The notes under the pieces are model-generated. The model ran no database searches. It worked only from the letters and a program-made list of their open reading frames with translations, and had not been told where the DNA came from. A program made the position numbers and the translations under genes. Of a stretch of 64,000 nucleotides of DNA, positions 34,434-50,256 are shown piece after piece; the stretch's first letter is position 1, and every line of letters begins with the position of its first letter. Source of the DNA: Candidatus Methanospirareceae archaeon. Lineage in GTDB: Archaea; Halobacteriota; Syntropharchaeia; Alkanophagales; Methanospirareceae. Where the stretch lies: NCBI GenBank assembly GCA_049975405.1, contig JBNGDK010000005.1:156-64155 (forward strand). The letters are read 5' to 3'.

Positions 34434-34739
34434 TTAAACGTTGCTAGATCGGTATCGTCGCAGCGCTTTCCGCAGCGTTTTCATCTCCTGCTTCAATAGC
34501 TTCAGCTCGCTCCTTAACGTGATCAGCTGCACACCATCCACGAGATTCGCGGGCATCTCGGGTATTTTAATTGTCAGCGCGCCGTGCCGGCATATGTTGT
34601 TACAGACGCCGCAGCAGGTGCAGCGGTTGTAATCAACGACCGCCTTCTTGTCTCTAATCGCAATCGCGTTATCGGGACAGGCCGTGACGCAATCGCCACC
34701 GCCCTTGCAGACCTGTAGGTCGATTACGGGTATCCACAT
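34434..34739 (-). CDS. Small 2x[4Fe-4S]-type ferredoxin-like protein with a basic helical tail
   Basis: CKGGGDCVTACP and CTCCGVCNNIC motifs. Overlaps the mutS 3' end by 16 nt. Confidence 0.7.
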   Translation of the reverse strand: MWIPVIDLQVCKGGGDCVTACPDNAIAIRDKKAVVDYNRCTCCGVCNNICRHGALTIKIPEMPANLVDGVQLITLRSELKLLKQEMKTLRKALRRYRSSNV

Positions 34740-37351
34740 AGCTTCTTCTGCATCTCATGGAGCAGATTAAGCGCCTCAATGGGCGAGATCTGCTCGATAT
34801 TGATCGTCTTCAGCTCCTCGAGCACCGGGTGCTCCTGCAGGACGATCTCCTTCTCCACCAGCGGCGCGGGGGCGCGCTCTTCAGCGCCGGTTCCTGCCCG
34901 TACCGCTTCACGCTCCATACGCTGCAAAACCTGCCTGGCGGAGGTGATGACATCGGCAGGCAGCCCGGCGAGCTTCGCGACCTGAATCCCGTAGCTCTTG
35001 GAGCCGCGGCCCTCGACCACCTTGCGTATGAAGAAGACCTCATCAGCGACCTCCTTGATAGAGACGTTGTAACAGTGCACGCCCTCGAGCAGATCGGCCA
35101 GCTCGGTAAGCTCGTAGAAATGCGTTGCGAAGAGCGTCTTCGCCTGGATGCGCTCTGAGACGTATTCCGCGACTGCCCATGCGATACTCACGCCGTCGAC
35201 CGTGCTCGTGCCACGTCCGATCTCATCGAGCACGATCAGGCTGCGTGCGGTCGCATTATTGAGGATATTGGCCGTCTCGCTCATCTCGACCATGAACGAG
35301 CTCTGGCCCATAGAGAGGTCGTCGTAGGCGCCGACGCGGGTGAAGATACGATCGACGACCCCGATCTGCGCGTCCGCTGCGGGCACGAACGACCCGAGCT
35401 GCGCCATCAACACGATCAACGCGACCTGCCGCATGAAGGTGGACTTCCCGCTCATGTTCGGGCCCGTAATGATCATCAGCCGTACCGGCCCGCCGATGTG
35501 GACGTCATTCGGCACGAACCCTTCCCGTACCTGCTTCTCAACGACCGGGTGCCTACCTCCTGTTATGACGATCTCGTCGCTCTCGTTGACGGTGGGGCAG
35601 CAGTAGCTGTTCTCGGCCGCGACGTCCGCGAAGGCAACGAGCATATCCAGCTCCGCGATCGCATTTGCCGCTTCCTGTATCTGTTTGGCATGTCGCGCGA
35701 CCGCTTTCCGCACCTGCTCGAACAGCTCGTACTCCAGCTCCTTTATCCGCTCCTCCGCGCTCAGGGCCTTCGCCTCGTACTCCTTCAGGTCCTCCGTGAT
35801 GTACCGTTCCGCATCAGTCAGCGTCTGTTTCCGGATATAGGACTCCGGTACCTTCTCTGACCAGGTCTTCCGCACCTCGACGTAATACCCGAAGACCTTA
35901 TTGTAGCCCACCTTGAGCGATTTGATCCCGGTCCGCAGTTTCTCGTGCTCTTCGAAGTCCGCGAGCCACTGCCGGCCTTCGTGCTTGATCGTCCGCAGCT
36001 CGTCCAGCTCGCGATTGAACCTCTGCTTGATCACGCCGCCCTCTTTTACGGTAAGCGGCGGCTCATCCTGGATGCTCTGCTCGATCATTTCAACGACCTC
36101 CGCGTAGGCCGGCGACTTCAAGGCTCGCAGCGCGTCTTTGTTCTTTGTCGCGCGGCACTTCTTCAGGATGCTTTGTAGCGACTCGCAGTGCTGTAACGAG
36201 CGCTTGAGCGCGATCATATCGCGTGCATTCGCGTTACCGTAGGAGATCCGGCTGATGATCCGCTCGATATCGTGGGTCTCTTTGAAGACGTCCTTGAGCG
36301 ATTCCCGGAGCAGGATATCGTTATTATATTCACGCACCGCCTCCTGCCGCCGCTGTATCTCGGTCGTATCGAGCAAAGGGAACTGCACGCTCTTCTTCAG
36401 CAGCCGTGAGCCCATACCAGTCAGTGTTTTGTCCAGCACGCTCACGAGCGTGCCCCGTGCGGTACCGTCGCGGATATTATGAAAGAGCTCGAGGTTGCGT
36501 ATAGAGACGCTATCGAGCACCATGTAATCGGAGACGAAGAAGGTTTTGAGCGGTTTGATATGCGCAAGCACCCGTTTCTGGGTATCACGCAGATACGAGA
36601 TGACCGCGCCCGCAGCAGAGATGCCGGCCTTGAGCTCACCGCAGCCGAAGCCGTCGAGCGAGATGACCCCGAAATGGTTAATCAGGGTGGTAAACGCGGT
36701 ATTGAACTCGAAATAGTAATCGTCATACCGTGAGATGGTAGCGAGCTCCTGGTCGAGCACGGGCTCGAGCACGAGCGACTCCGGCATAATGATCTCCGCG
36801 GGCCGCACACGCTCGATCTCCGTCACCAGTGACGAATGCGTCTCATCGTCTGTAAACTCAGTCACGGCGAACTCGCCGGTGGAGACGTCCACGATCGCGA
36901 TCCCAACGAGCCCTTCGAGCAGGTTCACGCACAGCAGGTAGTTGCTGACCCGCTCCTCGAGCAGGGTATCCTCGATCACCGTCCCGGGCGTAATCAGCCG
37001 CACGACCTCGCGCCGTTCGACCTCGCCGCTTGCGGCGTCCGTGATCTGCTCGCAGATCGCGACCTTAAACCCTTTCTGGATGAGCTGCTTGATGTACGGG
37101 GTGACCGCGTGGTAGGGCACGCCGGCCATGGGCGTTTTCCGTGCTGCGCCCTTGCCCCGGCCCGTTGCGGTCAAGGTGATGTTCAGCTCGCGTGCGGCGA
37201 TCTTGGCGTCCTCACCGAAGGTCTCGTAGAAGTCACCGACCCGGAAGAGCAGGAGCGCGTCGCGGTACTTCGACTTGATCTCGTAGTACTGCTGCATCAT
37301 CGGGGTCTGCTCAGAAGCGGTGGTCATCGGGACGTTCTCAGAACAAATCAC
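34724..37351 (-). CDS. mutS: DNA mismatch repair protein MutS (bacterial MutS1 type)
   Basis: 875 aa. Walker A GPNMSGKST and full MutS domain series. The true start may be the internal MTTASEQTPMMQQY. Confidence 0.95.
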   Translation of the reverse strand: MICSENVPMTTASEQTPMMQQYYEIKSKYRDALLLFRVGDFYETFGEDAKIAARELNITLTATGRGKGAARKTPMAGVPYHAVTPYIKQLIQKGFKVAICEQITDAASGEVERREVVRLITPGTVIEDTLLEERVSNYLLCVNLLEGLVGIAIVDVSTGEFAVTEFTDDETHSSLVTEIERVRPAEIIMPESLVLEPVLDQELATISRYDDYYFEFNTAFTTLINHFGVISLDGFGCGELKAGISAAGAVISYLRDTQKRVLAHIKPLKTFFVSDYMVLDSVSIRNLELFHNIRDGTARGTLVSVLDKTLTGMGSRLLKKSVQFPLLDTTEIQRRQEAVREYNNDILLRESLKDVFKETHDIERIISRISYGNANARDMIALKRSLQHCESLQSILKKCRATKNKDALRALKSPAYAEVVEMIEQSIQDEPPLTVKEGGVIKQRFNRELDELRTIKHEGRQWLADFEEHEKLRTGIKSLKVGYNKVFGYYVEVRKTWSEKVPESYIRKQTLTDAERYITEDLKEYEAKALSAEERIKELEYELFEQVRKAVARHAKQIQEAANAIAELDMLVAFADVAAENSYCCPTVNESDEIVITGGRHPVVEKQVREGFVPNDVHIGGPVRLMIITGPNMSGKSTFMRQVALIVLMAQLGSFVPAADAQIGVVDRIFTRVGAYDDLSMGQSSFMVEMSETANILNNATARSLIVLDEIGRGTSTVDGVSIAWAVAEYVSERIQAKTLFATHFYELTELADLLEGVHCYNVSIKEVADEVFFIRKVVEGRGSKSYGIQVAKLAGLPADVITSARQVLQRMEREAVRAGTGAEERAPAPLVEKEIVLQEHPVLEELKTINIEQISPIEALNLLHEMQKKLCGYP

Positions 37352-37432: not shown

Positions 37433-37476
37433 ACGAGGGAGAAAGAGAGAGGAAAAAAGAGAGAGAAAGGAAAAAA
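37433..37476 (+). repeat. 44-bp polypurine/polypyrimidine (GA)n-like tract immediately 5' of the tRNA gene
   Basis: Sequence gagggagaaagagagaggaaaaaagagagagaaaggaaaaaaggg has 100% purine on the plus strand. Confidence 0.7.
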
Positions 37477-37551
37477 GGGCCCGTGGCTTAGCACGGATAA
37501 AGCACCGGCCTTCTAAGCCGGGGATCGCGGGTTCGAATCCCGCCGGGTCCG
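37477..37551 (+). tRNA. tRNA-Arg (anticodon TCT). CCA is not encoded.
   Basis: Manual fold. Acceptor stem GGGCCCG/CGGGTCC with one G-U pair. Anticodon arm CCGGC-cTTCTAa-GCCGG. T-arm GCGGG-TTCGAAT-CCCGC. Length 75 nt. Confidence 0.85.
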
Positions 37552-37562
37552 TAATACGGGGC

Positions 37563-37693
37563 CAGACAATAAAAGGTCAGACCCCCCTTATCAACCCTCC
37601 AATAAGGGGCCGGACCCCCCTTATCAACCCTCCCAGCCAACCACTAAACGGGGCAGACCAGCATCTGTTTGGTGACAAACAACAACTTTAAAT
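37563..37693 (+). repeat. Island-boundary repeat block 1. It holds two tandem ~36-bp units with the core CCCCTTATCAACCCTCC, then a 59-bp tail with a hairpin (TGTTTGgtgaCAAACA) and a TATA-like CTTTAAAT positioned as a leaderless promoter for the next gene.
   Basis: Direct repeats with block 2 (38626-38786) at roughly 85% identity and with the unit at 42545-42578. The TATA-like box lies 24-31 nt upstream of the ATG at 37717. Confidence 0.8.
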
Positions 37694-37716
37694 CCTTGTA
37701 TCGGAAACGGACAAAT

Positions 37717-38001
37717 ATGAAAACCATTACCATTCGATTGCCGGACACGCTCGTAAAGGAACTTCCGGAAGAGGAGTCTTCACTCTCAGAAATCCTGAAA
37801 TTGGGGTTGAAGCAGATGAAGATAGAGAAAGCACTCGAGCGGTATAAAAAGGGTGGCGTATCACTGGCAAGAGTCGCGGAGTTAGCCGGTATTTCGATCC
37901 GGGAGATGATCCCTCTTGCCTATGCACATGGGTTAGAGCCCAAGTACGATGAAGCACTTCTTGAATCAGAACTCACGCCAGAAACCGCACGAACATTGTA
38001 G
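37717..38001 (+). CDS. UPF0175-family (PF03683-like) antitoxin, about 94 aa
   Basis: MKTITIRLPDTLVKEL then a helical domain. Usually paired with DUF3368 PIN-like toxins. The track ORF 37669 begins at a TTG inside the repeat, so the start is moved to the ATG at 37717. Confidence 0.6.
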   Translation: MKTITIRLPDTLVKELPEEESSLSEILKLGLKQMKIEKALERYKKGGVSLARVAELAGISIREMIPLAYAHGLEPKYDEALLESELTPETARTL

Positions 38002-38003
38002 CA

Positions 38004-38549
38004 ATGGCAGAGGTAACCGCTGTTTCTGATTCAGGACCATTGATCGCGCTGGCAAAGCTCGGCGTTCTCTCTCAAGTGCTTGCGGTTTATTCTACGCTTA
38101 TTATATCCTAAGTGGTCTCTCATGAGACCGTAACATCGGGCTTAGCTCTTGGAATGGTCGACGCAAAAGAGCTGGATAAACGCTGCCGAAGCGGTCAGAT
38201 AGTGATCATCCCGTCAGATGAAATACAGGAAATTTCACTGGATCAACCTGCTGAATTGCACCAGGGTGAATTAGAGACGATAAAGATCGCGATACAGCGT
38301 TCTGCGGATTTTCTGTTCCTTGATGATCTTGACGCCCGTCAGGTAGCTGAAGGGAATTGTCGTAAGATGGCGACCGCTCCAACCATAAAGGGGACACTTG
38401 GGGTTCTCGTCGAACTGTATCAGAAGGAGCCGATTTCAAAAGCGCATCTGAAGGAGCATCTTGAAGCGATACAAAAGCGTAAGGATATCTGGATAAGTGC
38501 TCAACTCTGTCAGAAGTTGATTGAGTCGTTGGAAACCGGTGTTCTGTAA
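38004..38549 (+). pseudogene. DUF3368-type PIN-domain toxin interrupted by an in-frame TAA at 38106-38108. The N-terminal 34 codons (MAEVTAVSDSGPLIALAKLG...) and the 145-aa downstream ORF are in the same frame.
   Basis: Manual translation gives ...STLIIS-TAA-VVSHETVTSGLALG... with no frame change. The N-terminal Asp-Ser-Gly-Pro-Leu-Ile-Ala-Leu-Ala-Lys motif is typical of DUF3368. Confidence 0.55.
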
Positions 38550-38625
38550 GCGCTTTTCATAGTGGTAGATATGGAATAGCTGATATGAGCTACGCGCGAC
38601 ATAATCGGTGCCTCTTTGCTTGTCC

Positions 38626-38786
38626 AATAAGGAGCCGGACCCTCCTTATCAACCTTCCCAGCCCATAAAACGGGACTACAAAACGGGATCAGACAATAAG
38701 CGGCCAGACCCCCCTTATCAACCCTCCCGACCACTAAACGGGGCCAGGCCCAGCAGCTGTTTGTTGATAAACAACAACTTTAAATT
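38626..38786 (+). repeat. Island-boundary repeat block 2: two ~36-bp units separated by 30 bp, plus the hairpin/TATA tail
   Basis: Units aataaggagccggaccctccttatcaaccttccc and cagacaataagcggccagaccccccttatcaaccctccc. Tail accactaaacggggccaggcccagcagctgtttgttgataaacaacaactttaaatt matches block 1. Confidence 0.8.
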
Positions 38787-38945
38787 CGTAAGATGCGCAA
38801 AGCATCATCACATCGGCATCACCATGAAAAGAAAAGCGCGGGAAGAAGGGCTTTTGGCTGATTCCCACCGGGCGGGGTGCACCCCTACGGTACAGGATCA
38901 TGGAGCTGCTTGTGGAGACGCCGGTGCACATAACTGCCCTGGCCG

Positions 38946-40094
38946 GTGCCCGAGGCATATCGGAAGAGGCGAAGGCGGATGAGAATATCGTACATTTCAA
39001 TAGACAGAATTTTAACTGAACTTAAGTCCAGAAAAGATTCAAGAATGGTACTTAGTGACGCACGAAAACGTTCAGAACAAGAGCTATTAGAGAAATTAGA
39101 ATCATTAGGTATAACAATCGATAAAAACACCTTTAAGGAATTGTGCGATGGCTATATTTCAGCAGAGGAATTATCTCAATACTTAACAACGAGATATAAC
39201 ATAATTTCCGGTGAAGATTGTGACTGGGTTTGGTTCTGTATAACAATACTTTGGGAGCGGTGGTTTAAAAATATACCAAACCTAGAAATGATCGATGACA
39301 AAATGCAAAAGGGATATTCAGAATGTAAAAAAGACCACACGATACGGGCTTGTGAGATCTGGTTGTCATATTGGGATGATGTCTTAGTCTTGATGGGAAA
39401 ATGGGGCGTACAATCAATAAAGGAATTTGATACCCGTTTTGATCAGACCCAAAGTGTTTATAATTGGTGTCAAGATTTCGAAATGGAACTCCATAACGCT
39501 TCGCTACAGGATGTGGGATATAATCAGTTTCGGATAGATTTCTGCGAGAAAATACTGCCGTTGATAGACAAAGAAGAAAAGTTACTTATTGGAAATATGA
39601 GAATGGGTATTGCTGAGTCATATTTTAACATGGAGCGAGCTAGCAAAGCAGATGAATTATATAAAGCATGGTTAGAAGCCGATCCCACATGGGGCTGGGG
39701 ATGGATTGGCTGGTCTGATCTTTACTGGCTATCTCCAAAAAAGGGATATCATAATCTCGAAAAGGCAGAAAAAATACTTATAGAAGCCCTAGAAAACGAA
39801 GACATCCGTGATAAGAGAGATGTTCTTGAACGCTTATCCGATTTTTATAGTAATATTAAGGCTGTCGATAAAAAGAAAAAAATAAACCGCCAAATAGCGT
39901 TATTGAATAAAGAACACAAAGAAGTTCATACTCATTGGCTGAATGAAGCAAACCCCAATGATTTCCCGTACACTTCATCTGCACAAAAACTGGCAAGAGA
40001 AATTCCTAAAAAAGGAAAGATAGGCAGAAACGACCCCTGTCCCTGTGGCAGCGGGAAAAAGTACAAGAAATGCTGTGGTCGATATACTAAATGA
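38946..40094 (+). CDS. Helical protein with a C-terminal SEC-C metal-binding motif (YecA/SecA-C-like), in an AT-rich island
   Basis: C-terminus [19 protein letters not shown]. About 37% GC. A start at the internal [12 protein letters not shown] is possible. Confidence 0.6.
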
Positions 40095-40476
40095 CAGAAA
40101 AAGCCGCGGTAATATGATTGAAACTGATGGCAAAAATATATCAAGAAGAGAGATAAAGCTAATATCATTTATTTGCAATACATATTGCCCCTTCTGTAAG
40201 AACGACAAATGTAATGCTGAGCAAATTATGGTAAAATATGACACCACGGAGTTGACTCCGGTTCAGGCGAAAGAAATACCTGAATTTAAATTAAACAACG
40301 CATCATGTCAAAATCACATACCTGATGAGGGATTCTTAATGTTTGGCCATAAAATTGAAATCCATTATTCTGATGGTAGAGTTGAGCTAAAGAAAGGGTG
40401 GTACACTACCACTGCGATTTCAGAACTATGGCGAGATGACGTCGAATATGTGGATATCATATTTAGTGACCTATAA
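40045..40476 (+). CDS. Hypothetical Cys-containing protein. The likely start is the internal [10 protein letters not shown].
   Basis: ORF-track only. CxxC motif. AT-rich island. Confidence 0.4.
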
Positions 40477-40517
40477 TTCTTCGCACATACAAAATCAAAG
40501 GCAGTGTAGTAAACTGA

Positions 40518-40823
40518 ATGGAGGAACGCATGAAACTAATCGATGAAATGAAAAGCTGTCTACCAATTCCAGTTTATCCATCTAAAGAATTGCTACAACT
40601 CATGCGTAAACGTGGAAAAAATGTCACCAATAGGGTGGAATTAAACATTACTAAGGTATTTGACTCTGGGGATATTGGAGGAATAGTTTGCGCAGTGCTT
40701 GAAGACAAAGAAGAAGAGTTTATCGTTTCGTTGACCAATCTCAAAATAAAGCCAACACATCCATTAGCTCATAAAATAGTGGCTTATCAAAAACAAAGAA
40801 TAAAAGCTATTTCAGGGAGATGA
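40518..40823 (+). CDS. Hypothetical 101-aa protein
   Basis: ORF-track only. AT-rich island. Confidence 0.4.
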   Translation: MEERMKLIDEMKSCLPIPVYPSKELLQLMRKRGKNVTNRVELNITKVFDSGDIGGIVCAVLEDKEEEFIVSLTNLKIKPTHPLAHKIVAYQKQRIKAISGR

Positions 40824-41413
40824 TATGATTTAGCCTATCTTTGCTTTCAGCAGACAAAAAAAAGGAGATAAAATTGACTATTTCAATATGAGTCGCATAT
40901 GCTACTTTAAGTATTTCTTCAATATTAAGGAAGTATTTAAGAATATATACCTATAATATAATCTATAATCAGGATAAATATAGGGTTTGAGCTATATCTA
41001 CAGTTGGAGAAATTGACAAAATTATAATATATAGCGAGGAAGTAATTTTAACTCTAGCTTAGTGAATATCCTTCGAAATATACCGTAACACTAGAAGTAT
41101 TCAAGAAGTATGCCACGATACTAAGAAATTCAATAGATAGCGATATAACGGGGAACCTACAAATAGTTGGTATGAACGATAGGGCTGCCGTTGAAGAAGC
41201 AATTGCGGTGGGCCACTTTACAACACGATTTGTCGGTACTTTTTATGCCGTTAGTTGTGAGCGGAATTATTGGTTATGTTGGTAGGATTTACGCTTCTTA
41301 TACCGTGAGAAATTGCGTCCTGGCGCGAATCTGGGAGTCCCTCTCAGGTTAAGCCATGTGACAATTCGCACTGTTTTTAACGTGATGGAGTCCTTATTTA
41401 TACGGGATCGATC

Positions 41414-41884
41414 GTGAGAAGACGAAAGGCGAAAGAAAACGAGAAAATATACCTGGTTAAGGTTATCCAGAGCGATTGGACCGGAAGAACAAGAGGCCAG
41501 CCCTACAGGATATTAGCCATTCAGGAAGAACTATCCCTTTATTCTTTTGCGGAAGCAATAGTAAGCTCTTTTAGTTTCGATTTTGATCATGCTTTTGGTT
41601 TTTATGATAATTTAAAGCAATGGACCAAATCAGAAGAATGTTATGAGTTATTCGAAGACATGCCGGAAGAGATTATTATCGAACCGAGAAGATGTAAAAG
41701 TGTTAAAAAGACGAAAGTAAAAGCGGTTTTTAGTGATGTTAAAAAGAGAATGCTTTTTCTTTATGATTATGGTGATGAATGGTATTTTATCGTTGAACTC
41801 CAAAAGATAGAAACTCCAAGAGAAGATTCAAAGTATCCCTTACTTGTAGAATCTGTTGGAAAAGCTTTTGCTCAATACGAATAA
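41414..41884 (+). CDS. pRiA4b ORF-3-like (PF07929-type) protein
   Basis: N-terminal IYLVKVIQSDWTGRTRGQPYRIL and the signature YDYGDEWYF, which match the PRiA4_ORF3 family consensus (YDFGDxWxH). GTG start. Confidence 0.5.
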   Translation: MRRRKAKENEKIYLVKVIQSDWTGRTRGQPYRILAIQEELSLYSFAEAIVSSFSFDFDHAFGFYDNLKQWTKSEECYELFEDMPEEIIIEPRRCKSVKKTKVKAVFSDVKKRMLFLYDYGDEWYFIVELQKIETPREDSKYPLLVESVGKAFAQYE

Positions 41885-42218
41885 TCAGAAGAGCATGGTA
41901 GAAATTATACAAGAGGTACACAAACGCACTTTTTTGAATCGGCCTTTTACTCACTGATGTCCCAGAGCGTCAACCTATTTTAGAGAAAGGTAGACGGTTC
42001 ATTGCTCCTTGTGTTGTACAACTGTTTCTTCAAAGTGATGATGCTTCTCTGGCGATCGTGGAAGAAGCGATGAAAGCGATAGGTTCGGCGGAAGCGATGG
42101 TGGATGATGACGCGCCTTTTCCCGTTCGTCGTGAGAGCAAGGATTGTTATAATGATCAGGGTGCTGAACGTTCAAAACGCTTTTCGGTCGTGCTGAGCTG
42201 GCACGAATCACCAAAAAG

Positions 42219-42464
42219 TTATTTTTGCCGCCCGCAGGTTCGGCCGTATTTAATGCCCCATGGCCCCCATGACGCACCCAGTATAGCACCCACGATGAGC
42301 AGCGAGACAAGGACAATCACACTGTTCTCAATGAGCGTGAACGCAGCGGCATGGAAGGTCAGCCATAAGATGAGAAAGGCGAGCCAGCCCATGACCACAA
42401 CGATCGAGAGCGAAACGCGCCACGCGAATCCTGGCGTTCCCAGCACCGCTTCATCTTCTGCCAT
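42219..42464 (-). CDS. Hypothetical small membrane protein, 81 aa with 2 TM helices
   Basis: Hydrophobic segments. ORF-track only; GC-rich patch. Confidence 0.3.
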   Translation of the reverse strand: MAEDEAVLGTPGFAWRVSLSIVVVMGWLAFLILWLTFHAAAFTLIENSVIVLVSLLIVGAILGASWGPWGIKYGRTCGRQK

Positions 42465-42544
42465 ATACTACGCTCCTTCGAGGATGTAACTGACGTAAAG
42501 CACGTCAGCTTAAAACGTTGTGGTGAGTCGCTGTCGGGGACGGA

Positions 42545-42578
42545 ATAAGGAGCCTGATTCTCCCTATCAACCCTTCCG
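42545..42578 (+). repeat. Third copy of the ~34-bp island repeat unit
   Basis: Sequence aataaggagcctgattctccctatcaacccttcc; about 80% identity to units at 38626 and 37601. Confidence 0.65.
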
Positions 42579-42769
42579 GCCATTAGGGGTCAGAGACAAA
42601 AGGAGCTTTTCTTGCTTCTTTGGATTTACAGAAGGAGCAATGGAGATCTCATCCCTTCGCCTATAAGCTATCGTGGTCGATCTGGTTAATATGTTAATTG
42701 ATTATTCCGAAAAAAGCAAGGGTTTTTATAGATGCATACCAAATTGTCATGCTTATTGTGTGATGAAAG

Positions 42770-43801
42770 ATGAAGAAGGAACAGATGATTGGCTTTTTCT
42801 TGATTGCACTCGTGGCAGGTATAATGTTCGCAGGATGCGTTGAAGAAGAAACACCAGCGACTTATCCAACTCCAGCACAAACAGCTGAAGAAGCACCATC
42901 AATAATGCCATTGGAAACGCTTGAACAAACACAGGCAACAGAAGAAATATTACCTTCATCAACTCCCACACAGTACAAATCTGTTATTCAATATAGAAAC
43001 CAGACTGCATACAAGGCAGAATATATCTTTGAACTATTATTTGGTGAACACACCACTATAAATTTTTTAAATGTTTATGTCCCTATACCAACGGAATGGG
43101 AATCACAGAGAGATGTAGAATTAATTTTACTTTCTCCCGATGGAGATATTAGTTCAAAGAACATTTACGGAAAATACATAAATTTTAATAAAGATAATCT
43201 AAAAAACAATATGCTTTCAACAAAGCAAATATTTAAGTTCAACACGTATGAAACAATAACAAATACTAAAGTTGACAACGTGCAGAATTATAACACTAGC
43301 TCAGTTATTTATAGCGAATACACAAAACATGAAAATAAAATAGAAAGAGATTTTTTTGTAGATAAAATACAAGAAATCGTGGGCGATGAAGAAAATCCTA
43401 TTAAGAGAGCTAGAAAAATTTATGATTATGTTATCGGCTCTGTTAGATATAAGTCGCAAGGTGGAGTCCTCAGAGGTGCGAAATATTGCTATGAAAATAA
43501 AGAAGGAGAATGTGGTGATTATTCAGCGTTGTTTGTAGCTATGTGTAGGGCTGAAGGTATACCAGCCAGACCCGTTGTTGGTTTTTGGGCTGATTCCGCT
43601 TATGGTAATGAGCATGTATGGGCAGAATTTTATGTTCAAGATATTGGATGGATACCCGTAGATCCAACAATCGGACAACAAAGCGAAGAGGAACGAGAGT
43701 ACTACTTCGGAAATATGGATAATAAGCGACTTATAATGTCGAAGGGGTATAATGTTCCGTTTGATGCGGGTACCGCTGATTTATTCCATATTGGGGCTTA
43801 G
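42770..43801 (+). CDS. Transglutaminase-like cysteine protease domain protein with an archaeal lipobox-type signal peptide
   Basis: Signal peptide and Cys (LIALVAGIMFAGC). Transglutaminase core GECGDYSALFVAMCRAEGIPARPV, HVWAEFY, WIPVDPT (Cys-His-Asp). Confidence 0.8.
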   Translation: MKKEQMIGFFLIALVAGIMFAGCVEEETPATYPTPAQTAEEAPSIMPLETLEQTQATEEILPSSTPTQYKSVIQYRNQTAYKAEYIFELLFGEHTTINFLNVYVPIPTEWESQRDVELILLSPDGDISSKNIYGKYINFNKDNLKNNMLSTKQIFKFNTYETITNTKVDNVQNYNTSSVIYSEYTKHENKIERDFFVDKIQEIVGDEENPIKRARKIYDYVIGSVRYKSQGGVLRGAKYCYENKEGECGDYSALFVAMCRAEGIPARPVVGFWADSAYGNEHVWAEFYVQDIGWIPVDPTIGQQSEEEREYYFGNMDNKRLIMSKGYNVPFDAGTADLFHIGA

Positions 43802-44135
43802 GTGGTATGGTATTGGCGAACATCCTTCTTTAAATTACCAGTATGATGGGGGAAAAATGTAATTATTATATATTTGAGAGGGTAATAAATTGCTCGTTAA
43901 AATCCCTTTCATCACTCTGTGGTCCTGTTGATGTTGCACCAGATAAAGGATTTGTTTTAGTTAATAAAAGCAAATTAAATGGCGAACGGAGTAGAAGTCG
44001 ATCTTGACGAACAGCCAGTTTTGAAATAATTAAACGTGTTCGAACCAACTCTTCTAATATTTGATTCCAAGTCTGAGCAGCGTGCATTGAATTAGGCACT
44101 GCAAGGTTTTATACCGCTGCGGACATGATTAGAGC

Positions 44136-44783
44136 ATGCGAAAAAGCGTACTGGTGGTCTGGCTGCTGGTGCTGCTCGCGTTCGCGCTCAGTATCGCGGT
44201 CTACCCGCAGATGCCGGAGCTGATGGCTTCGCACTGGAACGCACGCGGCGAGGTCGACGGCTACATGTCCAAGTTCTGGGGCCTGTTCTTGCTCCCGCTA
44301 CTGCTCGCGGGTGTCGTGCTCCTGCTGCTGGCGATACCGCGTATCGATCCGTTGAGGGCGAACATAGCAGCGTTTCGATCCTATTACGACGGTTTCATCC
44401 TGGTCTTCTGCCTCTTTCTGCTCCTGGTACACCTGCAGGTCATTCTGTGGAACAGCGGCATCGAGATCAGCCCCAACCTGACGCTCCCGATCGGCTGCGG
44501 GCTGCTCTATTACTATATCGGGATCATGCTCGAGCACGCGCAGCGGAACTGGTTCATCGGAATCAGGACGCCATGGACGCTGAGCAGCGATACCATATGG
44601 ACGCAGACGCATCAACGCGGTGCGAAACTGTTCAAGCTCGCGGGCGCTATTGCCATACTGGGAGTTTTCGTTCCGGCCTACGCTATCCTCTTCATCATCA
44701 TGCCCGTGCTCTTCGTCGCGGTGTACACTATTGTCTATTCCTACTGGGCATATCAGGAGGAGCTGCGGCGTGGACGCAGTTAG
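44136..44783 (+). CDS. SdpI/YhfL-family membrane protein (DUF1648 plus SdpI immunity-like domain)
   Basis: PQMPELMASHWNARGEVDGY matches the DUF1648 motif. 6 TM helices. GC-rich, unlike its neighbours. Confidence 0.6.
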   Translation: MRKSVLVVWLLVLLAFALSIAVYPQMPELMASHWNARGEVDGYMSKFWGLFLLPLLLAGVVLLLLAIPRIDPLRANIAAFRSYYDGFILVFCLFLLLVHLQVILWNSGIEISPNLTLPIGCGLLYYYIGIMLEHAQRNWFIGIRTPWTLSSDTIWTQTHQRGAKLFKLAGAIAILGVFVPAYAILFIIMPVLFVAVYTIVYSYWAYQEELRRGRS

Positions 44784-44912
44784 GTGATTGTGCCTCTTCC
44801 ATCTCTTCAAATGACCGGGGACAGGTTCTACGGGGCACTTCAGTCTAAACGATACTCCACGTCGTTCCTTTACATCGTGCGATCTTGGAGAAAAGAAAGT
44901 ATACTACTTATC

Positions 44913-45161
44913 TTACAGTGCAACGGCTTTAAAATCAAGCTCGCCCGCGAGAATTTTTTGCAGTTTGACTTTCTGCTCGCTCACTTCCTTTAAAATTTGA
45001 TTGACGTGTTCCACAGTATCTATCGAGAAATATCGTTCTCCACACTGTTGGCAAACCAATGCGGGGACTTCTTTTATTACCACTACTTTCCCGTCTGCTT
45101 TTTTTATAACTTCAACCTCTTTCTCTTCTAATTCTCCACCGCAAAGGCTACAAGGCTCCAT
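44913..45161 (-). CDS. YgiT-type zinc-finger protein (MqsA-like zinc ribbon without HTH)
   Basis: CSLCGG...VPALVCQQCGERYFS. Strong SD (AAGGAGG) 7 nt upstream. Confidence 0.6.
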   Translation of the reverse strand: MEPCSLCGGELEEKEVEVIKKADGKVVVIKEVPALVCQQCGERYFSIDTVEHVNQILKEVSEQKVKLQKILAGELDFKAVAL

Positions 45162-45304
45162 TGTTTCATTTACCTCCTTTTTTCCTCAATCTAGAGTTAA
45201 TCCATCTTTCAGGATTCGGTTCATAGGCCGTTAATATTCTTATATGTTCTTTACATAAAGCAACAGGCACGTGGATAGGTCTTGGACCGACAAAGACCAG
45301 GATT

Positions 45305-45430
45305 AAAAAACTTTTCGTTCCGCCCTACGCTATCCTCTTCATCATCGTGCCTGTGCTCCTCGTCGCAGTGTACACTATTGTCTATTCCTACTGGGCATAT
45401 CAGGAGGAGCAGCGGCGTGGACGCAAGTAG
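45305..45430 (+). pseudogene. Orphan duplicate of the last ~40 codons of the SdpI-like gene (FVPPYAILFIIVPVLLVAVYTIVYSYWAYQEEQRRGRK)
   Basis: About 90% nucleotide identity to 44666-44783. No upstream coding continuity. Confidence 0.55.
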
Positions 45431-45497
45431 GTGATAGGAAGTGGCATTTTTCGGTAGCGTGGCCAACCTCAAGAACTGGCGCGAAGCGCCGTCTATA

Positions 45498-46229
45498 TCA
45501 GATCCTCAGGGAGCTTGTACCGAGGATGCGAACGATGTCATTCCTGGAGATTGACGGCCGGTGCGTGGATGCAAATTTCCGCTTTGACAGATTCTCCACG
45601 ATACTCGGTAACAGCTCAGCGGGGATCCCGACGAAAATATCCTCATCTTTGACAGTCATAGACCTTCTTGCACCCACATCACCCAGGCTATAAACAACTT
45701 CACCGGTCAGAGCAGGGTAAGCAACCACTGCTGAACAGACCGGAGGACCGGTTAAGCCCCTGGTAAGCCTGCCTGATTCGTATGCAACTGCTTCCGCTAT
45801 TTCCATCCCTTGCTTCGCAGTGCAGATGAGAACCACGATGTCCGGTTCAAATGCGGTCTTTTCCAATGGTGAAAACGTAATCACCTTAACGGCTCCAGGT
45901 TCTAGTCTTGGAATTGAGCTGATAAATCGTCTCGCAGCTCTCGTGGAGCCAAAGAGTCCTAAATCCTTAGCAAGGAACTCACCGGTCATTAACCGCTCAC
46001 TTGGCGGTATCAACCCGCAACTATAAGCGCCCCCGTCACATTCGTGGTTCTCCGCAAGGGTATAGAACGATACCCCTTCAAGCCGGACTTTATCGAGCAT
46101 TTGGCAGAGTCTCATTCGCCCTTGCAGCTGTTCTACACCTTCCAGCGGTCTGCTCGAGAACGTGACAGCAATCGGAGAACGTTCGAGCCCTAAGATCGCC
46201 GTTAATCTTTTTGCGAGTTCGGCATACAT
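45498..46229 (-). CDS. DUF169-family protein (COG2043-like)
   Basis: 243 aa. Family assignment from memory of the N-terminal LGL..PIAV.F and C.GG motifs. Confidence 0.45.
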   Translation of the reverse strand: MYAELAKRLTAILGLERSPIAVTFSSRPLEGVEQLQGRMRLCQMLDKVRLEGVSFYTLAENHECDGGAYSCGLIPPSERLMTGEFLAKDLGLFGSTRAARRFISSIPRLEPGAVKVITFSPLEKTAFEPDIVVLICTAKQGMEIAEAVAYESGRLTRGLTGPPVCSAVVAYPALTGEVVYSLGDVGARRSMTVKDEDIFVGIPAELLPSIVENLSKRKFASTHRPSISRNDIVRILGTSSLRI

Positions 46230-46571
46230 CTATCTCTATTCACCTCCTCTAATCTTCTCTATTTCCTCCAGCCCCTTTAATGTTTCCCTCACTTCACCGT
46301 ATCGCCGGTATTCATGTTCGTGGATGACCCACGGATAGGAGTCGATGCACTGAACCTTGAGGAGTTTTAGATATCCTCGGATGAATGCTGCAGGTATTGA
46401 GCGGTTTCTGACGAGCACGTACAGATCGCAGAAGGGCCAGAGCCTAAGGGAAAAACGCTCAGGGTGTAGACGGTAACTGTTAAGGTGCGTGCCGGAAGTA
46501 AAAAGCTAAGCGGGCCGCTCTATTTATAGCCACTTGCGAAATAGTATATTCGATAATAGAAAACGCAAAAG

Positions 46572-47717
46572 GTGCTCAAAATGGGAAATCCAAAAAGAAT
46601 AATGAACGATAAAATAATGAAGCTCATAGCAGTGACAGGAGATCTAATCAGAGACTGTGCATTAGAAAACGGTGGTATTGTAGCTGCGAACGCAACAAAA
46701 AAATATTATCCAGCAGCTGCTAAAAATTACTTTTATGTCTGGCCACGTGATGCTGCATTTGCCTGTATTGCCGCAGATGTGTTGGGCCTTGAGAACGTCC
46801 AGGAAAACTTCTTTGACTGGTGTTTGAAGCGGGCTGAAGGGTTCAGAGATAACGGATTGTTTTATGAAAAATACTACCCGAACGGATTAAAAGCGTTAAC
46901 ACAGTTCCAACCAGACCAGACCGGTATGGTATTGTTTGCGGTATGGCACCATTATAAAGCGGATATGAGCCGGGCATCAGAATTCCATGAGCTCATTGAA
47001 ATCGCCGGCAACGGTATCTGTAGCGCGTGGAACAAAGATCACTTCACCAGGGTTACGAACGACCTGTGGGAGGAGCGACTTTGCTTTCCGGATCTCAACG
47101 AGAATTTCTCGTATTCGTTAGCCGCATGCATCAAAGGTCTTCGCTGTGCACATGCAGTAATGCCAAACCCAAAATGGATTACAACTGCATCAGAAATGAA
47201 AAAACGTCTGGATAACCAGTTCATGGACTATTTCATCCGATCATGTGGTAAGCTATCTGACCGGCGGATAGATGCATCCGCAATGGGGTTAGTTTATCCG
47301 TTTGAGGTGTATGACGCTAATGATCCGCGAATACTTGCCACAATAAACGAAATCGAGAAAAGACTTGTTAATAACGGGGGAGTACACCGGTATGAACACG
47401 ACGAGTATGATGGCTGGATGTATGAAACGCTGCACAGAAAAAAGGGTGCAGGTGCATGGCCGCTCCTGAATTTCTGGATGGCTCTGTATTATGCGATTAA
47501 AGGAGATAAAGATAGTGCTGAAAAGTACTATTACTGGGTTTTAGAAAAAATTAACGCGGGTTATTGCTGCATACCTGAGCAGATATTTGAAAATGAAATA
47601 CAGGTGTCTGTCTCGCCGTTACTATGGTCTCATGCCATGTTCGTAGTGGCCTCTAAACAGCTGGGGATACTTACATCACATAACCGCGTCACTGCAAATA
47701 AAACTATTGATTTGTAG
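46572..47717 (+). CDS. Glycoside hydrolase family 15 (glucoamylase/trehalase-like) catalytic domain protein
   Basis: YFYVWPRDAAF motif and (alpha/alpha)6-barrel-type sequence. 381 aa. Confidence 0.7.
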   Translation: MLKMGNPKRIMNDKIMKLIAVTGDLIRDCALENGGIVAANATKKYYPAAAKNYFYVWPRDAAFACIAADVLGLENVQENFFDWCLKRAEGFRDNGLFYEKYYPNGLKALTQFQPDQTGMVLFAVWHHYKADMSRASEFHELIEIAGNGICSAWNKDHFTRVTNDLWEERLCFPDLNENFSYSLAACIKGLRCAHAVMPNPKWITTASEMKKRLDNQFMDYFIRSCGKLSDRRIDASAMGLVYPFEVYDANDPRILATINEIEKRLVNNGGVHRYEHDEYDGWMYETLHRKKGAGAWPLLNFWMALYYAIKGDKDSAEKYYYWVLEKINAGYCCIPEQIFENEIQVSVSPLLWSHAMFVVASKQLGILTSHNRVTANKTIDL

Positions 47718-47783
47718 TTGTTCTAATCTTCAACTGAAGAAATAAGTGAGGCGCCCAGCATGACTGCAGGAAACTGGGTGTCT

Positions 47784-48029: not shown

Positions 48030-48125
48030 AGTAGTACTCTCGTTCTGTCATTTATATGTCCTCGCTGGTTATTCCTTCTTCGCTTAGGCTAAATCTAAGC
48101 CTTCATACCCCAGAAAATACTGCCC

Positions 48126-48345
48126 TTACGCCTGCCGCACCGTTCGCTTCTGCTCGTAGAGCCGCCTCAGTGCCGTTACCATATCCGCGTAGCAGCAGTA
48201 CTCAGAACGCTTCGTTCGCTGTATGCTCGTACGCGGTAATTGCGCCGTACCCGTTCCAGCGCGGGATCGAACCGCACCCGGCTGAGATGCATCGACTGCT
48301 CCGGCCTGTACCCGCTGTCCTAGAGCCTCGTGGTGCTGCCTGAAA
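48126..48345 (-). pseudogene. Degenerate duplicate of the 3' end of the hypothetical gene 49273-50256
   Basis: About 78% nucleotide identity to 49290-49480. The protein match (SEYCCYADMVTALRRLYEQKRTVRQA against SEYYCYADLVTALKRIYEQEQTVRQA) is then lost through indels. Confidence 0.45.
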
Positions 48346-48459: not shown

Positions 48460-49143
48460 ATGGTGGCAGTGTTAACGCCAGATGTGAAAAAACTGGAAAG
48501 CAAGGCAGATATTAACGGCTTGATAAAAGCGTTAGAGCACAAGAAAATCGATGTCCGGTACAGAGCAGCAGTGGCGCTTGGTAAGCTGGGCGACGAGCGA
48601 GCAGTAGAACCGCTCATTCGCGCTTTCCAGGATGAAGACGAGGTTTTTCGTGCAAAAGTAGCAGCGGCGCTTGGCAAGCTGGGCGATGAGCGTGCAGTAG
48701 AACCGCTCATTCGCGCTTTACAGGACGAAGATGATACTGTTCGCGAGAAAGCAGCGGAGGCGCTTGGTAAGCTGGGCGATGAGCGTGCAGTAAAACCACT
48801 CATTCGTGCTCTGGAGGATAAAAATGAATTTTTCCGGAAGAAAGCAGCCGAGGCGCTTGGTAAGCTGAGAGATGAACGTGCAGTAGAACCGCTCATTCGC
48901 GCGTTGCCGGATAAGGATGAGTATGTTCGCGCGAAAGCAGCCGAGGCGCTTGCGGTGATCGGAGAACCGGCGGTAGAACCGCTCGTTCGCGCTCTGAAGG
49001 ATAAAAATGATGATGTTCACACAGGCGCAGCAAAGGCTCTTGAAAGAATGAACTGGATTCCTAGAGACAAAGCTGAAGAAGCTTCTTTCTTACTGGCAAA
49101 AAAGGTGTGGCATCATTTAATAGGGCTAAAGAAAAAAGAATGA
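48460..49143 (+). CDS. PBS-lyase HEAT-like repeat protein
   Basis: Seven 31-aa repeats of AAEALGKLGDERAVEPLIRAL(Q)D.D..VR; 93-bp tandem periodicity at the DNA level. Confidence 0.85.
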   Translation: MVAVLTPDVKKLESKADINGLIKALEHKKIDVRYRAAVALGKLGDERAVEPLIRAFQDEDEVFRAKVAAALGKLGDERAVEPLIRALQDEDDTVREKAAEALGKLGDERAVKPLIRALEDKNEFFRKKAAEALGKLRDERAVEPLIRALPDKDEYVRAKAAEALAVIGEPAVEPLVRALKDKNDDVHTGAAKALERMNWIPRDKAEEASFLLAKKVWHHLIGLKKKE

Positions 49144-49272
49144 TCTGGATTCCTGAAGACAAAGTTGAAGAAGCTTCTTTCTTACTGGCGAAAAAGGTGT
49201 GCTTCGAGCGGTAGTGGATCCGCTATTCAGTGCGTTATGCCAGGCCACTTACCTCAGGATTCGATTATTATA

Positions 49273-50256
49273 CTACATATACGCCTGCCGCACCGTCTGT
49301 TCCTGCTCGTAGATCCGTTTCAGTGCTGTCACCAGATCCGCATAGCAGTAGTACTCGGACTGCTCCGCTTTCTGCTCGTACGCGGCAATGGTGCGCTGTA
49401 CCCGCTCCAGCGCGGGATCGAGCCGCACCCAGCTGAGGTGTACTGACTGCTCTGGCTGATACCCGCCGTCCTCGACCGTCGTGGTGTATCCTGCCAATTC
49501 CAGCTCCGCGTTGACCTTCTCATGATTCAGCTCTCCGTACGCATACGCGAGCACAAATCTCTTTACATGGTGCAACAGCTCTCGATCTTTGATCCCAAAT
49601 CCGGGTTCCGCATTCAACGCGGGCACAGTCGCCAGCCCGGCGAGCGAGAAGAGGAATGGTGTGGCCATGAAAGCTTTAAACGCTGCTGGTGCGGCGTCAT
49701 GCAGCTCCTTAAAAAACGTGAGCACGTCATCGCGGCGCGGCATGCCCAGTGACCCGAGCGTCTCGAGTAGTACCAGCGGCTCTTCATAAACACCGAATGC
49801 CGCTTCTGCGCCAAGTGCCTGGACGAAACTCCGCACGCCCTGACGGGTCACCTCGAGGATCGCGTCGGGCACGACCTGCGCGGCACGCAGGTTCGCACGC
49901 TGTAGCGGCGTGATGTACCGCTGCTGCTCCCGCAGGAACCCCACAAAATTGCCGGGATAAAACTCCTCGATGTCCGCGAGATACGCGAAGTTGTGTGCCA
50001 GGATGCCGAGCTTCGCCAGCTCCGTGGGATAGTAATCGAACGGCACCCGCGGATTCGGCGTTGAGAACCGCATCTCGTGCGCCTCCGGGAAGATGAGCGC
50101 CGGGTTCCTGGACTGGTACCAGACGGTCGGCTCATACACGATCCGGTAACCTGCGTACGCTTCTGGCTCCAGGTACGTCTGGAGCTCCTGGAATGCCGAC
50201 TCCCATTCCGCCGTTACCGCGGCCAGTAGCTGCTGAGTATCCTCATGCTCTTCCAT
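49273..50256 (-). CDS. Hypothetical 327-aa protein
   Basis: ORF-track. No family recognised. Its 3' end is duplicated at 48126-48345. Confidence 0.55.
   Translation of the reverse strand: MEEHEDTQQLLAAVTAEWESAFQELQTYLEPEAYAGYRIVYEPTVWYQSRNPALIFPEAHEMRFSTPNPRVPFDYYPTELAKLGILAHNFAYLADIEEFYPGNFVGFLREQQRYITPLQRANLRAAQVVPDAILEVTRQGVRSFVQALGAEAAFGVYEEPLVLLETLGSLGMPRRDDVLTFFKELHDAAPAAFKAFMATPFLFSLAGLATVPALNAEPGFGIKDRELLHHVKRFVLAYAYGELNHEKVNAELELAGYTTTVEDGGYQPEQSVHLSWVRLDPALERVQRTIAAYEQKAEQSEYYCYADLVTALKRIYEQEQTVRQAYM

Follow-up and report, generated by a model that had tools for sequence, protein, structure and literature searches.

How do unrelated, AT-rich genes come to stand in a row behind a single tRNA gene, parted by copies of one and the same short hairpin? 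The question is raised by a stretch of 64,000 nucleotides (nt) from the chromosome of a Candidatus Methanospirareceae archaeon (contig JBNGDK010000005.1, positions 156 to 64,155; the whole stretch is called the window below), a member of the ANME-1 (anaerobic methanotrophic archaea, group 1) lineage. Just 3' of its tRNA-Arg(TCT) gene, five copies of a repeat that we call E, all on the same strand, lie among a UPF0175/PIN toxin-antitoxin (TA) module, a SEC-C/PRiA4 module and an AT-rich transglutaminase block (Table 1). A first-pass annotation had read this as an array of cassettes, each bounded by a recombination-site-like repeat that doubles as a promoter, and had likened it to integron arrays or to serial integrations at a tRNA-associated attachment (att) site. 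The answer proposed here is that the 3' end of tRNA-Arg(TCT) would be a hot spot for insertion with hypervariable content, and serial tyrosine-recombinase-type integration at that end, followed by decay, is its best explanation, one that we hold to be probable, if not strongly so. The repeat is another matter: it recurs throughout the lineage, for the most part in conserved surroundings.

The tRNA-Arg(TCT) site in close relatives

The DNA after tRNA-Arg(TCT) differs between close relatives (those with MutS 93-95% identical to the window's; L-numbers designate the loci or contigs compared), as the idea of independently acquired modules had implied. L032, L132 and L133 have E, a stretch of 290 nt with a second copy of part of the neighbour's 3' end, E' and a convergent lectin/PPC gene: the window's modules are all absent. 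L129 continues with E', the lectin gene, an E block, PBP, a gene for an 81-amino-acid (aa) membrane protein and an MmeI-type restriction-modification gene. Without any of the window's modules at the same tRNA, these loci represent the empty site. L128 and L131 have a half-unit, E, SEC-C and PRiA4, and are without the counterparts of window positions 37601-38689 (the TA module) and 40100-41215. In L170 and L169 there is no E directly behind the tRNA: a 1.65-kb module, made up of a 69-aa open reading frame (ORF) and an AAA-ATPase/DUF4143 gene, comes first, followed by a repeat of the tRNA end, E, linker, a tail with CTTTAAAT, UPF0175, a deletion join, E' and the lectin gene. The lectin and ATPase modules are in inverted orientation. 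L048, L134 and L137 have the tRNA with neither E nor island, and the more distant genomes (MutS 75-80%) have mutS and tRNA-Arg, likewise without E or island. The window's own MutS is 100% identical to a protein of a Candidatus Methanospirareceae metagenome-assembled genome. (A metagenome scan with MutS returned mostly bacterial MutS of ~44% identity, and only three useful loci.)

Set against these relatives, the window's homology breaks at the border of E copies 1 and 2 (37600), resumes at copy 4 (38690) and ends just before copy 5 (42538), while the junction at 42064-42163 has no E. Copy 3 and the linker after it are orthologous to a degenerate E block of L129; it is at copy 4 that homology to L128 and L131 restarts (blastn breakpoints); and copy 5 is placed exactly at the end of homology with L129.

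Two relatives are particularly instructive about the manner of insertion. The 2.3-kb SEC-C/PRiA4 module of L128 is flanked by direct repeats, identical at 61 of 64 positions, that begin inside the tRNA (ATCCCGCC(G/A)GGTC(C/T)G) and run from its 3' end through half-unit and E; past the right repeat there is a degenerate E, after which the flank is exactly that of the empty site in L032. This is the classical attL/attR picture. The ATPase module of L170 opens at the first base past the tRNA and closes with AATACCGCAGGGACCGTC, a 15/18 match to the tRNA end; since E is single there and not duplicated, the crossover is located in the tRNA end. It is thus the 3' end of tRNA-Arg that is repeated, as att core, in both. 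The two modules are unrelated, and nevertheless share ~30 nt inside the right repeat (TCCGCACC(Y)AACTAA..TGCT); the shared right-end sequence, TCCGCACCYAACTAA..TGCT, stands just before the tRNA-end repeat. A right end common to two different modules speaks for a single family of integrating elements. In L170, the only Pfam match of the ORF adjoining the tRNA is to Phage_integrase (PF00589; profile positions 115-164 of 172, E-value 0.011, below the curated cut-off), and four of its five top matches in the PDB are tyrosine recombinases, Pyrococcus abyssi XerA first (E-values 0.3-0.9). It aligns to the catalytic C-terminus of XerA, HP1 integrase and XerH, with the tyrosine apparently lost. The indication is weak but coherent: the ORF looks like the remnant of a decayed tyrosine recombinase. 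Of the two analogies first drawn, serial integration at a tRNA-associated att site is the one that suits this remnant and the tRNA-end repeats.

The scheme that these loci suggest can be put as follows. Small modules (UPF0175/PIN, SEC-C/PRiA4 and AT-rich transglutaminase in the window; lectin and AAA-ATPase in relatives) would have been inserted serially at or just past the tRNA end, most likely by elements that used a tyrosine recombinase and an att site overlapping the tRNA 3' end. Each insertion would duplicate a stretch that starts in the tRNA 3' end and, in this lineage, continues into E, and E copies would accumulate at module borders because the duplicated stretch runs on into E. The conservation of E would make it a stable landmark beside the att site. 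Deletions and illegitimate joins would later have trimmed the insertions. With no integrase left in the window, the modules would be remnants or be moved in trans.

A good deal weighs against this scheme. No integrase gene, intact or decayed, has been found in the window: as already remarked in the first-pass annotation, none is visible, and a Pfam scan of the window's ORFs of at least 120 aa (four of which match no family at all) detects no integrase, recombinase or transposase domain, nor does tblastn detect a recombinase remnant like that of L170. The sole trace of a recombinase is the sub-threshold match just described, in one relative. Only E-containing blocks repeat in the window, with a tRNA-end part that is barely recognisable (CGGGAC.. 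in block B, to be compared with CGGGTC..) and at most doubtful at E copy 5. The duplicated blocks A and B include the promoter tail of the TA module, a feature not expected from one simple att crossover into an L128-like site, so that an extra step, e.g., gene conversion or tandem integration, is needed. IMG/VR yields no free element with the att sequence, E or the shared right end, and no viral or plasmid attP: queries with the E core, the E halves, the module right end and the 3' 22-mer of tRNA-Arg returned nothing, or chance 15-16-mers that fail the covariance model of E. The modules are very small (1.1-4.6 kb). Around other inserts in the window, the 3' ends of genes are duplicated over 124 nt and ~230 nt, a pattern that suits homology-driven insertion no less than site-specific integration. 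Lastly, the function proposed for E is conjecture.

(Two observations made in passing: positions 656-6278 of L137 (Methanophagales CR_Bin_179, JAFNKG010000003.1), ~3.5 kb from tRNA-Arg and mutS in a genome without E there, hold ten co-directional ORFs with no Pfam match, which may be a virus or plasmid integrated at the same tRNA; and P0240, an ANME-1-type MutS homologue of 1378 aa, contains intein and homing-endonuclease domains (PF14528, PF14890, PF05204).)

Modules and repeats in the window

The core of the repeat, CCCCTTATCAACCCTCC, has exactly five matches in the window at three or fewer mismatches, all on the plus strand and starting at 37584, 37617, 38642, 38711 and 42560. The number expected by chance is 0.10, and five were reached in 0 of 100 shuffles. 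A covariance model of the family, run with filters off, returns the same five units and none other in 64 kb, and further degenerate copies or half-sites are absent from the GC breakpoints at 44.05, 44.85, 45.3, 46.35 and 48.0 kb. The five-copy repeat originally reported is accordingly real, its start coordinates having been right to within a few bases. The unit is of ~40 nt, (A)TAAGGGGCCAGACCCCCCTTATCAACCCTCCCRRCC, laid out as (A)TAAGGGG-CCAGACC-CCCCTTAT and then CAACCCTCCC-RR-CC: inspected across 67 aligned copies, it shows a perfect stem of 8 bp, a loop of 7 nt and a 3' tail rich in C. Read as DNA, the core is an inverted repeat with 8-bp arms and a 7-nt spacer, ATAAGGGG-CCAGACC-CCCCTTAT. 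L128 has a 15-nt left-half duplication in the place equivalent to that of the window's partial copy. A CRISPR array, with its regular spacing of ~60-75 nt and unique spacers, was considered and rejected on the spacings of the window's copies: 33, 1025, 69 and 3849 nt.

Table 1. Features of the tRNA-Arg(TCT) locus, in window coordinates.
Feature	Position	Strand	Basis or remark
mutS	34724-37327	-	divergent from tRNA-Arg(TCT)
tRNA-Arg(TCT), anchor of the hot spot	37477-37551	+	ARAGORN; Rfam, 68.6 bits
Partial, left-half-like E copy (ATACGGGGCCAGAC)	37554-37567	+	between tRNA and E copy 1
E copy 1, degenerate left arm (AATAAAAGGTCAGAC...)	37567-37600 (model span 37569-37599)	+	covariance model, 37.6 bits
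E copy 2, full unit	37600-37642	+	covariance model, 64.2 bits
Mobile UPF0175/PIN module with own promoter region	37659-38594	+	nt identity, Pfam, PADLOC PDC-S70
Tail copy 1, hairpin TGTTTG-GTGA-CAAACA	37666-37681		
Tail copy 1, CTTTAAAT	37686-37693		
UPF0175 gene	37717-38001	+	
DUF3368-type PIN gene	38004-38549	+	
E copy 3, compensatory GGAG/CTCC in stem	38625-38667	+	covariance model, 61.1 bits
E copy 4	38694-38736	+	covariance model, 64.0 bits
Second linker and copy of the TA-module promoter tail	38737-38785	+	
Tail copy 2, hairpin TGTTTG-TTGA-TAAACA	38758-38773		
Tail copy 2, CTTTAAAT	38778-38785		
SEC-C/PRiA4 module	38786-42064	+	Pfam
GC-rich leader with 52-codon Cys-rich ORF	38824-38982	+	
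SEC-C/TPR gene	38979-40094	+	
1.1-kb extra segment	40100-41215	+	two small ORFs
PRiA4_ORF3 gene	41414-41884	+	
Native-GC segment	42163-42538	-	81-aa membrane-protein gene (42219-42464); blastn 85.4%
E copy 5, most diverged	42543-42585	+	covariance model, 50.4 bits
AT-rich block	42600-44050	+	transglutaminase-like lipoprotein gene (42770-43801)
Remainder of the flagged region	44136-47717		no E copies; covariance model, Pfam
SdpI/DUF1648 gene	44136-44783		native GC
MqsA-like zinc-finger gene	44913-45161	-	in a 524-nt AT-rich insert (44789-45311)
DUF169 gene	45498-46229	-	
GH15-like glucoamylase-family gene	46572-47717		

The first foreign module begins 108 nt past the tRNA. The mosaic composition that had been noted, with modules of lower GC than their flanks, is there: ~0.55-0.60 in the flanks, 0.47-0.50 in the TA module, 0.28-0.44 at 39.0-41.95 kb and 0.28-0.43 at 42.6-44.05 kb. 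The gene content is likewise as originally listed (by Pfam: UPF0175, DUF3368-type PIN, SEC-C, PRiA4_ORF3, Transglut_core), except that the PIN gene is inactivated by an in-frame TAA at 38109-38111. The PIN gene of a 96%-related module in L140 (1727-2279) has a frameshift a few codons upstream of the position of the window's stop, and that of L171 is intact (181 aa). Because the lesions in the window and in L140 differ, the toxin has decayed independently, with retention of the antitoxin.

Does E bring a promoter with it, as the first-pass annotation proposed? Units 2 and 4 each precede a related stretch of ~50 nt: first a linker in which a left half is partly present (ACGGGGC(C)AG), then a hairpin and CTTTAAAT. 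An extension of two copies had been described as identical over ~58 bp; it does follow copies 2 and 4, but its 36-nt tails are 92% identical, and when block 37600-37693 is aligned with block 38694-38785, ~86 of the 96 columns match. The first CTTTAAAT box ends 24 nt ahead of the ATG at 37717, at the promoter distance claimed for it; after the second box, for which the same had been claimed, the next ATG comes only at 38824, 39 nt on. The TA module is also found elsewhere, at 86.5-87.3% nt identity over exactly 37659-38594, in ANME-community contigs without E. Some of these are TA-rich islands beside an IS110 transposase, and one copy lies between two fragments of an FGE-sulfatase gene; seven contexts of the module are without E. 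L128 and L131 lack the module. Its homology begins at CAGCATCTG and so takes in hairpin and CTTTAAAT; the tail is therefore the TA module's own promoter region. Upstream of SEC-C, where the window has its second tail, L128 has a T-rich box. The second tail was copied locally, through gene conversion or tandem insertion, rather than being a portable promoter that forms part of a recombination site. For the same reason, that the tail travels with the TA module in contigs without E, its membership in the E family was rejected.

TA-like modules are stacked three deep in L139-L141, the UPF0175/PIN module among them, and are edged there by an IS110-family transposase (DEDD_Tnp_IS110 and Transposase_20; 3439-4470 in L140) that is split in two in L141.

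The SEC-C/PRiA4 module is 92.9% and 85.4% identical to its 2.3-kb counterpart in L128, which is without the extra segment 40100-41215. Another side observation: one frame (+2) of its leader, at 38840-38975 (8640-8760 in L128), resembles a truncated ArsR-like N-terminal helix-turn-helix; the conserved 52-codon Cys-rich ORF is in another frame, and the leader's only Pfam hint is faint (E-value 0.06). Farther along, the 81-aa membrane-protein gene has an ortholog ~5.5 kb from the tRNA in L129, and the place of the window's transglutaminase block is taken in L129 by the MmeI-type restriction-modification gene.

Some observations on the DNA to the right of the E copies, and on one place far from them, are added here. 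The last 124 nt of the SdpI/DUF1648 gene (44665-44788) recur, 94% identical, 647 nt downstream at 45312-45435. The ORF at 44913-45161, which lies between the copies, specifies an antitoxin-like YgiT/MqsA-type zinc-finger protein of 82 aa, and the arrangement has the appearance of another small insertion, accompanied by a long duplicate of a gene's 3' end. A ~230-nt direct repeat, ~85% identical, occupies 48112-48345 and 49266-49497; its right copy is the 3' end of a minus-strand gene (49273-50256; 327 aa, no Pfam match), its left copy is a detached duplicate, and a HEAT/PBS-lyase repeat gene (48460-49143) with 93-nt internal tandem repeats lies between them. The architecture matches those at SdpI and at the lectin gene of L032. 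Far from the island, GC falls to 0.41 at 12001-13000, within an ORF (11203-14736) for a NosD/beta-helix surface protein of 1177 aa.

E in the ANME-1 lineage

The repeat is not specific to the island: a scan of 185,579 species-representative genomes with a degenerate 21-nt core finds 47 loci, 43 of them archaeal and nearly all in metagenome-assembled genomes (MAGs) of ANME-1/Methanophagales type, in ~30 MAGs with one to four loci each. (A technical note: the core had to match exactly, which makes conservation within the 21 positions a matter of construction and under-counts diverged copies, such as the one after PolD in L134, at 34 bits; the MAGs are, moreover, incomplete.) Outside the search pattern E is still nearly invariant (ATAAGGGGCCA on the left, C-RR-CC on the right), and it reaches 57-72 bits even where mutS is only ~72% identical in DNA to that of the window.

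At every locus E follows a gene on that gene's own strand. At 31 of 32 protein-gene loci the TAA of E serves as the stop codon (20 loci) or, 3 or 6 nt further on, as a second stop in frame (11 loci). The upstream genes belong to 13 families, all housekeeping: Cgi121, proteasome ATPase PAN, PolD DP2, SRP54, ProB, NadA, ThiC, geranylgeranyl reductase, MBL hydrolase, FAD oxidase, epimerase and two that are nameless. In three further MAGs E stands 2 nt past tRNA-Arg(TCT), as in the window's relatives. At orthologous loci of different MAGs E is in the same place, mostly with the same downstream gene: the core-gene copies are therefore old and stable, and are not hot spots. The family is, in other words, dispersed and usually not tied to variable gene content, which tells against the first-pass reading; the relatives, on the other hand, do not carry an identical region at the tRNA, so that only half of what was named as refuting that reading is borne out. 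Units also occur in tandem (2-5 units, with periods of 36-43 or 69-76 nt), the inner ones without the ATAA arm and, outside the window, with identical linkers.

Two Methanophagales MAGs have E beside CRISPR repeats: in L018 (5002-5076, 5217-7263) it directly follows one (..GCTTTTGCAAT|AAGGGG), and in L045 (2570-4960) a 36-repeat array has its first repeat ~60 nt away. Two other intergenic motifs were noticed. The palindrome GGATCAAACCTTTTTCTAAAAGGTTTG, with T5/A4 runs, lies ~10-40 nt past E at six MAG loci (L005, L018, L020, L024, L039, L045) and may be a bidirectional terminator; GAAAAGCTTTACCAAAAGAACAA recurs in L009, L030 and L046.

What might E do? Near-invariance across the lineage implies a function for the host, and, whatever its role, E is rather probably a functional, previously undescribed cis-element under strong purifying selection. 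In Rfam 15 (E-value up to 1; 36.5-49.5 kb) only the tRNA is matched, and E falls in no family; no IMG/VR contig matches it; literature searches by exact sequence and by topic, over the papers open to searching, returned nothing on it. It is apparently an undescribed element of ANME-1 genomes. We infer a 3'-end signal on RNA, or else a factor-binding signal. The strict sense orientation, the stop codon in the stem and the invariance of loop and tail would suggest that a specific factor recognises one strand, most simply at the 3' ends of RNAs, and a further cue for such a role is that E follows not only ORFs but also a tRNA and a CRISPR repeat. Covariation in the hairpin, which would point the same way, is modest (five compensatory cells, at two of the eight pairs, and ten G-U cells on the sense strand) and the RNA fold (-10.2 kcal/mol, z = -1.7) is energetically unremarkable; these statistics cannot decide between a role as RNA and one as DNA. 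A T5 run within 60 nt after E, at 37% of the loci and 12% of random positions, is suggestive only. E, a hairpin followed by UAUCAACCCUCC, may also resemble the 3' end of 16S rRNA, where helix 45 is followed by GAUCACCUCC. Two other candidates were discarded: a coding extension or readthrough peptide (there are stops in tandem units, and E stands after a tRNA and after a CRISPR repeat too), and a type III toxin-antitoxin RNA array, which the 36-43-nt tandem units might bring to mind (single copies follow core genes).

Other routes to the same locus

If no recombinase is left in the window, need there ever have been one? Campbell-type insertion of donor DNA through a short identical stretch, by way of the host's RadA, would dispense with a dedicated enzyme and make E a mere portable homology. 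The flanking repeats do differ in length and content, from 18 nt in L170 through 64-82 nt in L128 to ~95-150 nt in the window's blocks A and B, and other inserts lie between copies of protein-gene 3' ends (124 and ~230 nt in the window, ~150 nt in L032); repeat pairs are 78-95% identical, as the divergence of donor and recipient would make them; none of the observed modules has an intact integrase; and the join of UPF0175 to the chromosome in L170 sits at a 5-nt microhomology, ATGGC. We nevertheless consider this route unlikely, though not negligible: a specific right end shared by two unrelated modules and the recombinase remnant of L170 speak for a dedicated family of elements, a diverged repeat of 18 nt (15/18) is short for homologous recombination, and the start of the L170 insert coincides exactly with the tRNA's last base. 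A different way of doing without a local integrase is to make E itself the site of a recombinase encoded elsewhere, and the island a cassette platform in the manner of integron attC or Acinetobacter pdif, usable at any E. An 8-bp inverted repeat around a 7-nt spacer is laid out like the core sites on which tyrosine recombinases act (loxP, FRT, dif and the lambda core sites); breakpoints between the window and its relatives coincide with E copies, partial left halves ending in ..CAGAC abut other sequence, several MAGs have tandem arrays of 2-5 units, and the cassettes are without recombinases. Stated more generally, E would be the site of an ANME-1 trans-acting factor and, at tRNA-Arg, the landing site of an integrase-less cassette capture, an archaeal counterpart of integrons and pdif modules; its core-gene copies would then be additional landing pads, or else 3'-end signals of a new, sequence-specific class. 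This we regard as improbable in the specific form, and no less so in the general. About a dozen core-gene loci hold E in short intergenic spacers with the same neighbours at orthologous loci; the crossover of L170 is in the tRNA end and leaves E unduplicated; the TA module occurs elsewhere without E; the junction at 42064-42163 has none; the "left half" after E may be native (compare CTAACGGGGCG in the empty site of L032); and a single orientation locked to the upstream gene is not required of a DNA site. Might E, then, have no part in insertion, its copies being the modules' own 3'-end elements, brought along when their genes were imported from other members of ANME-1? Throughout the lineage E stands immediately 3' of a gene and in sense orientation, copy 3 is placed 75 nt past the PIN stop codon, and AT-rich modules could derive from ANME-1 genomes of lower GC. 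But the seven contexts of the TA module without E, the position of copy 5 upstream of a minus-strand gene in a divergent spacer, and the tRNA 3'-end fragment that precedes the right-hand E of the L128 module make this very improbable. A selfish repeat like repetitive extragenic palindromes (REP) or miniature inverted-repeat transposable elements (MITE) would also be short, hairpin-bearing, intergenic and sometimes tandem. This reading, or that of chance similarity, we hold to be extremely improbable: the copy statistics exclude chance, and E is of low copy number (one locus in 64 kb), at orthologous positions across species, near-invariant while the flanking genes diverge, and accompanied by neither target-site duplication nor transposase. 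These last two readings fit the data poorly.

Serial integration at the tRNA end remains the reading that we prefer, and comparison with known systems bears on it. Elements and islands targeted to tRNA genes in archaea and bacteria use a tyrosine recombinase and an att site overlapping the tRNA 3' end, and accrete in tandem at one tRNA. The present locus is like them in its place at a tRNA 3' end, its foreign composition, the stacking of several modules, the relatives' direct repeats containing the tRNA 3' end, variable presence and one recombinase remnant; it differs in that the window has no integrase, the modules are of only 1-5 kb, no free element has been found, and the repeats often extend into, or consist of, the conserved non-tRNA E. 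TA cassettes are common in integron arrays, which resemble the locus in their small, unrelated modules parted by a repeated, hairpin-containing site. The likeness fails on every defining feature tested: intI and attI are absent from the 64 kb (by the integrase scan of ORFs); E, with its 23-nt perfect hairpin and C-rich tail, differs from attC (55-140 nt, RYYYAAC/GTTRRRY, extrahelical bases), a reading that was rejected on structure, there being no GTTRRRY partner in E among the 67 copies inspected; integron cassettes are promoterless and in one orientation, whereas the modules here carry their own promoters, the TA module its CTTTAAAT region in every context, and have mixed orientations; and E occurs at stable core-gene loci as well. 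Integron cassette arrays have been reported in archaeal MAGs as well (PMC9668308). Xer-dependent dif modules (the pdif modules of Acinetobacter plasmids, and elements exploiting Xer) likewise lack a recombinase, contain TA pairs and are bounded by short sites usable in trans, but their 28-nt site (11-6-11) alternates in orientation, whereas E is 8-7-8 with all copies direct, and is multi-copy at gene ends where dif is a single terminus site. REP and bacterial interspersed mosaic elements (BIME), finally, are short 3' intergenic hairpin repeats in sense orientation, sometimes clustered, and could stabilise the upstream mRNA; E differs in its low copy number, its near base-for-base conservation across species and the stop codon in its stem, and has neither a conserved GTAG head nor a RAYT-type (REP-associated tyrosine) transposase known to accompany it.

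One can think of the island, then, as an ordinary tRNA-linked integration hot spot of unusual form: its modules are tiny and integrase-less, and its junction repeats come from a conserved non-tRNA element. ANME-1 are uncultured, methane-oxidising archaea of importance in the methane cycle, and to our knowledge little is known of how their genomes take up genes. tRNA-Arg(TCT) beside mutS is a concrete, repeatedly used entry point for such gain; several of its population variants are in public metagenomes, which allow the acquisition and loss of genes for defence and the cell surface to be followed. E itself appears to be the more interesting result: an undescribed, strongly constrained cis-element, conserved across ~30 species-level genomes while its neighbours drift to ~70% DNA identity. 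Such a pattern implies that a factor as yet undescribed in archaea recognises the sequence, whether at RNA 3' ends or in DNA. If E marks the 3' ends of transcripts, it would be a lineage-specific exception to the archaeal rule of oligo-T termination; were it a recombination site, it would stand for a cassette system of a new kind.

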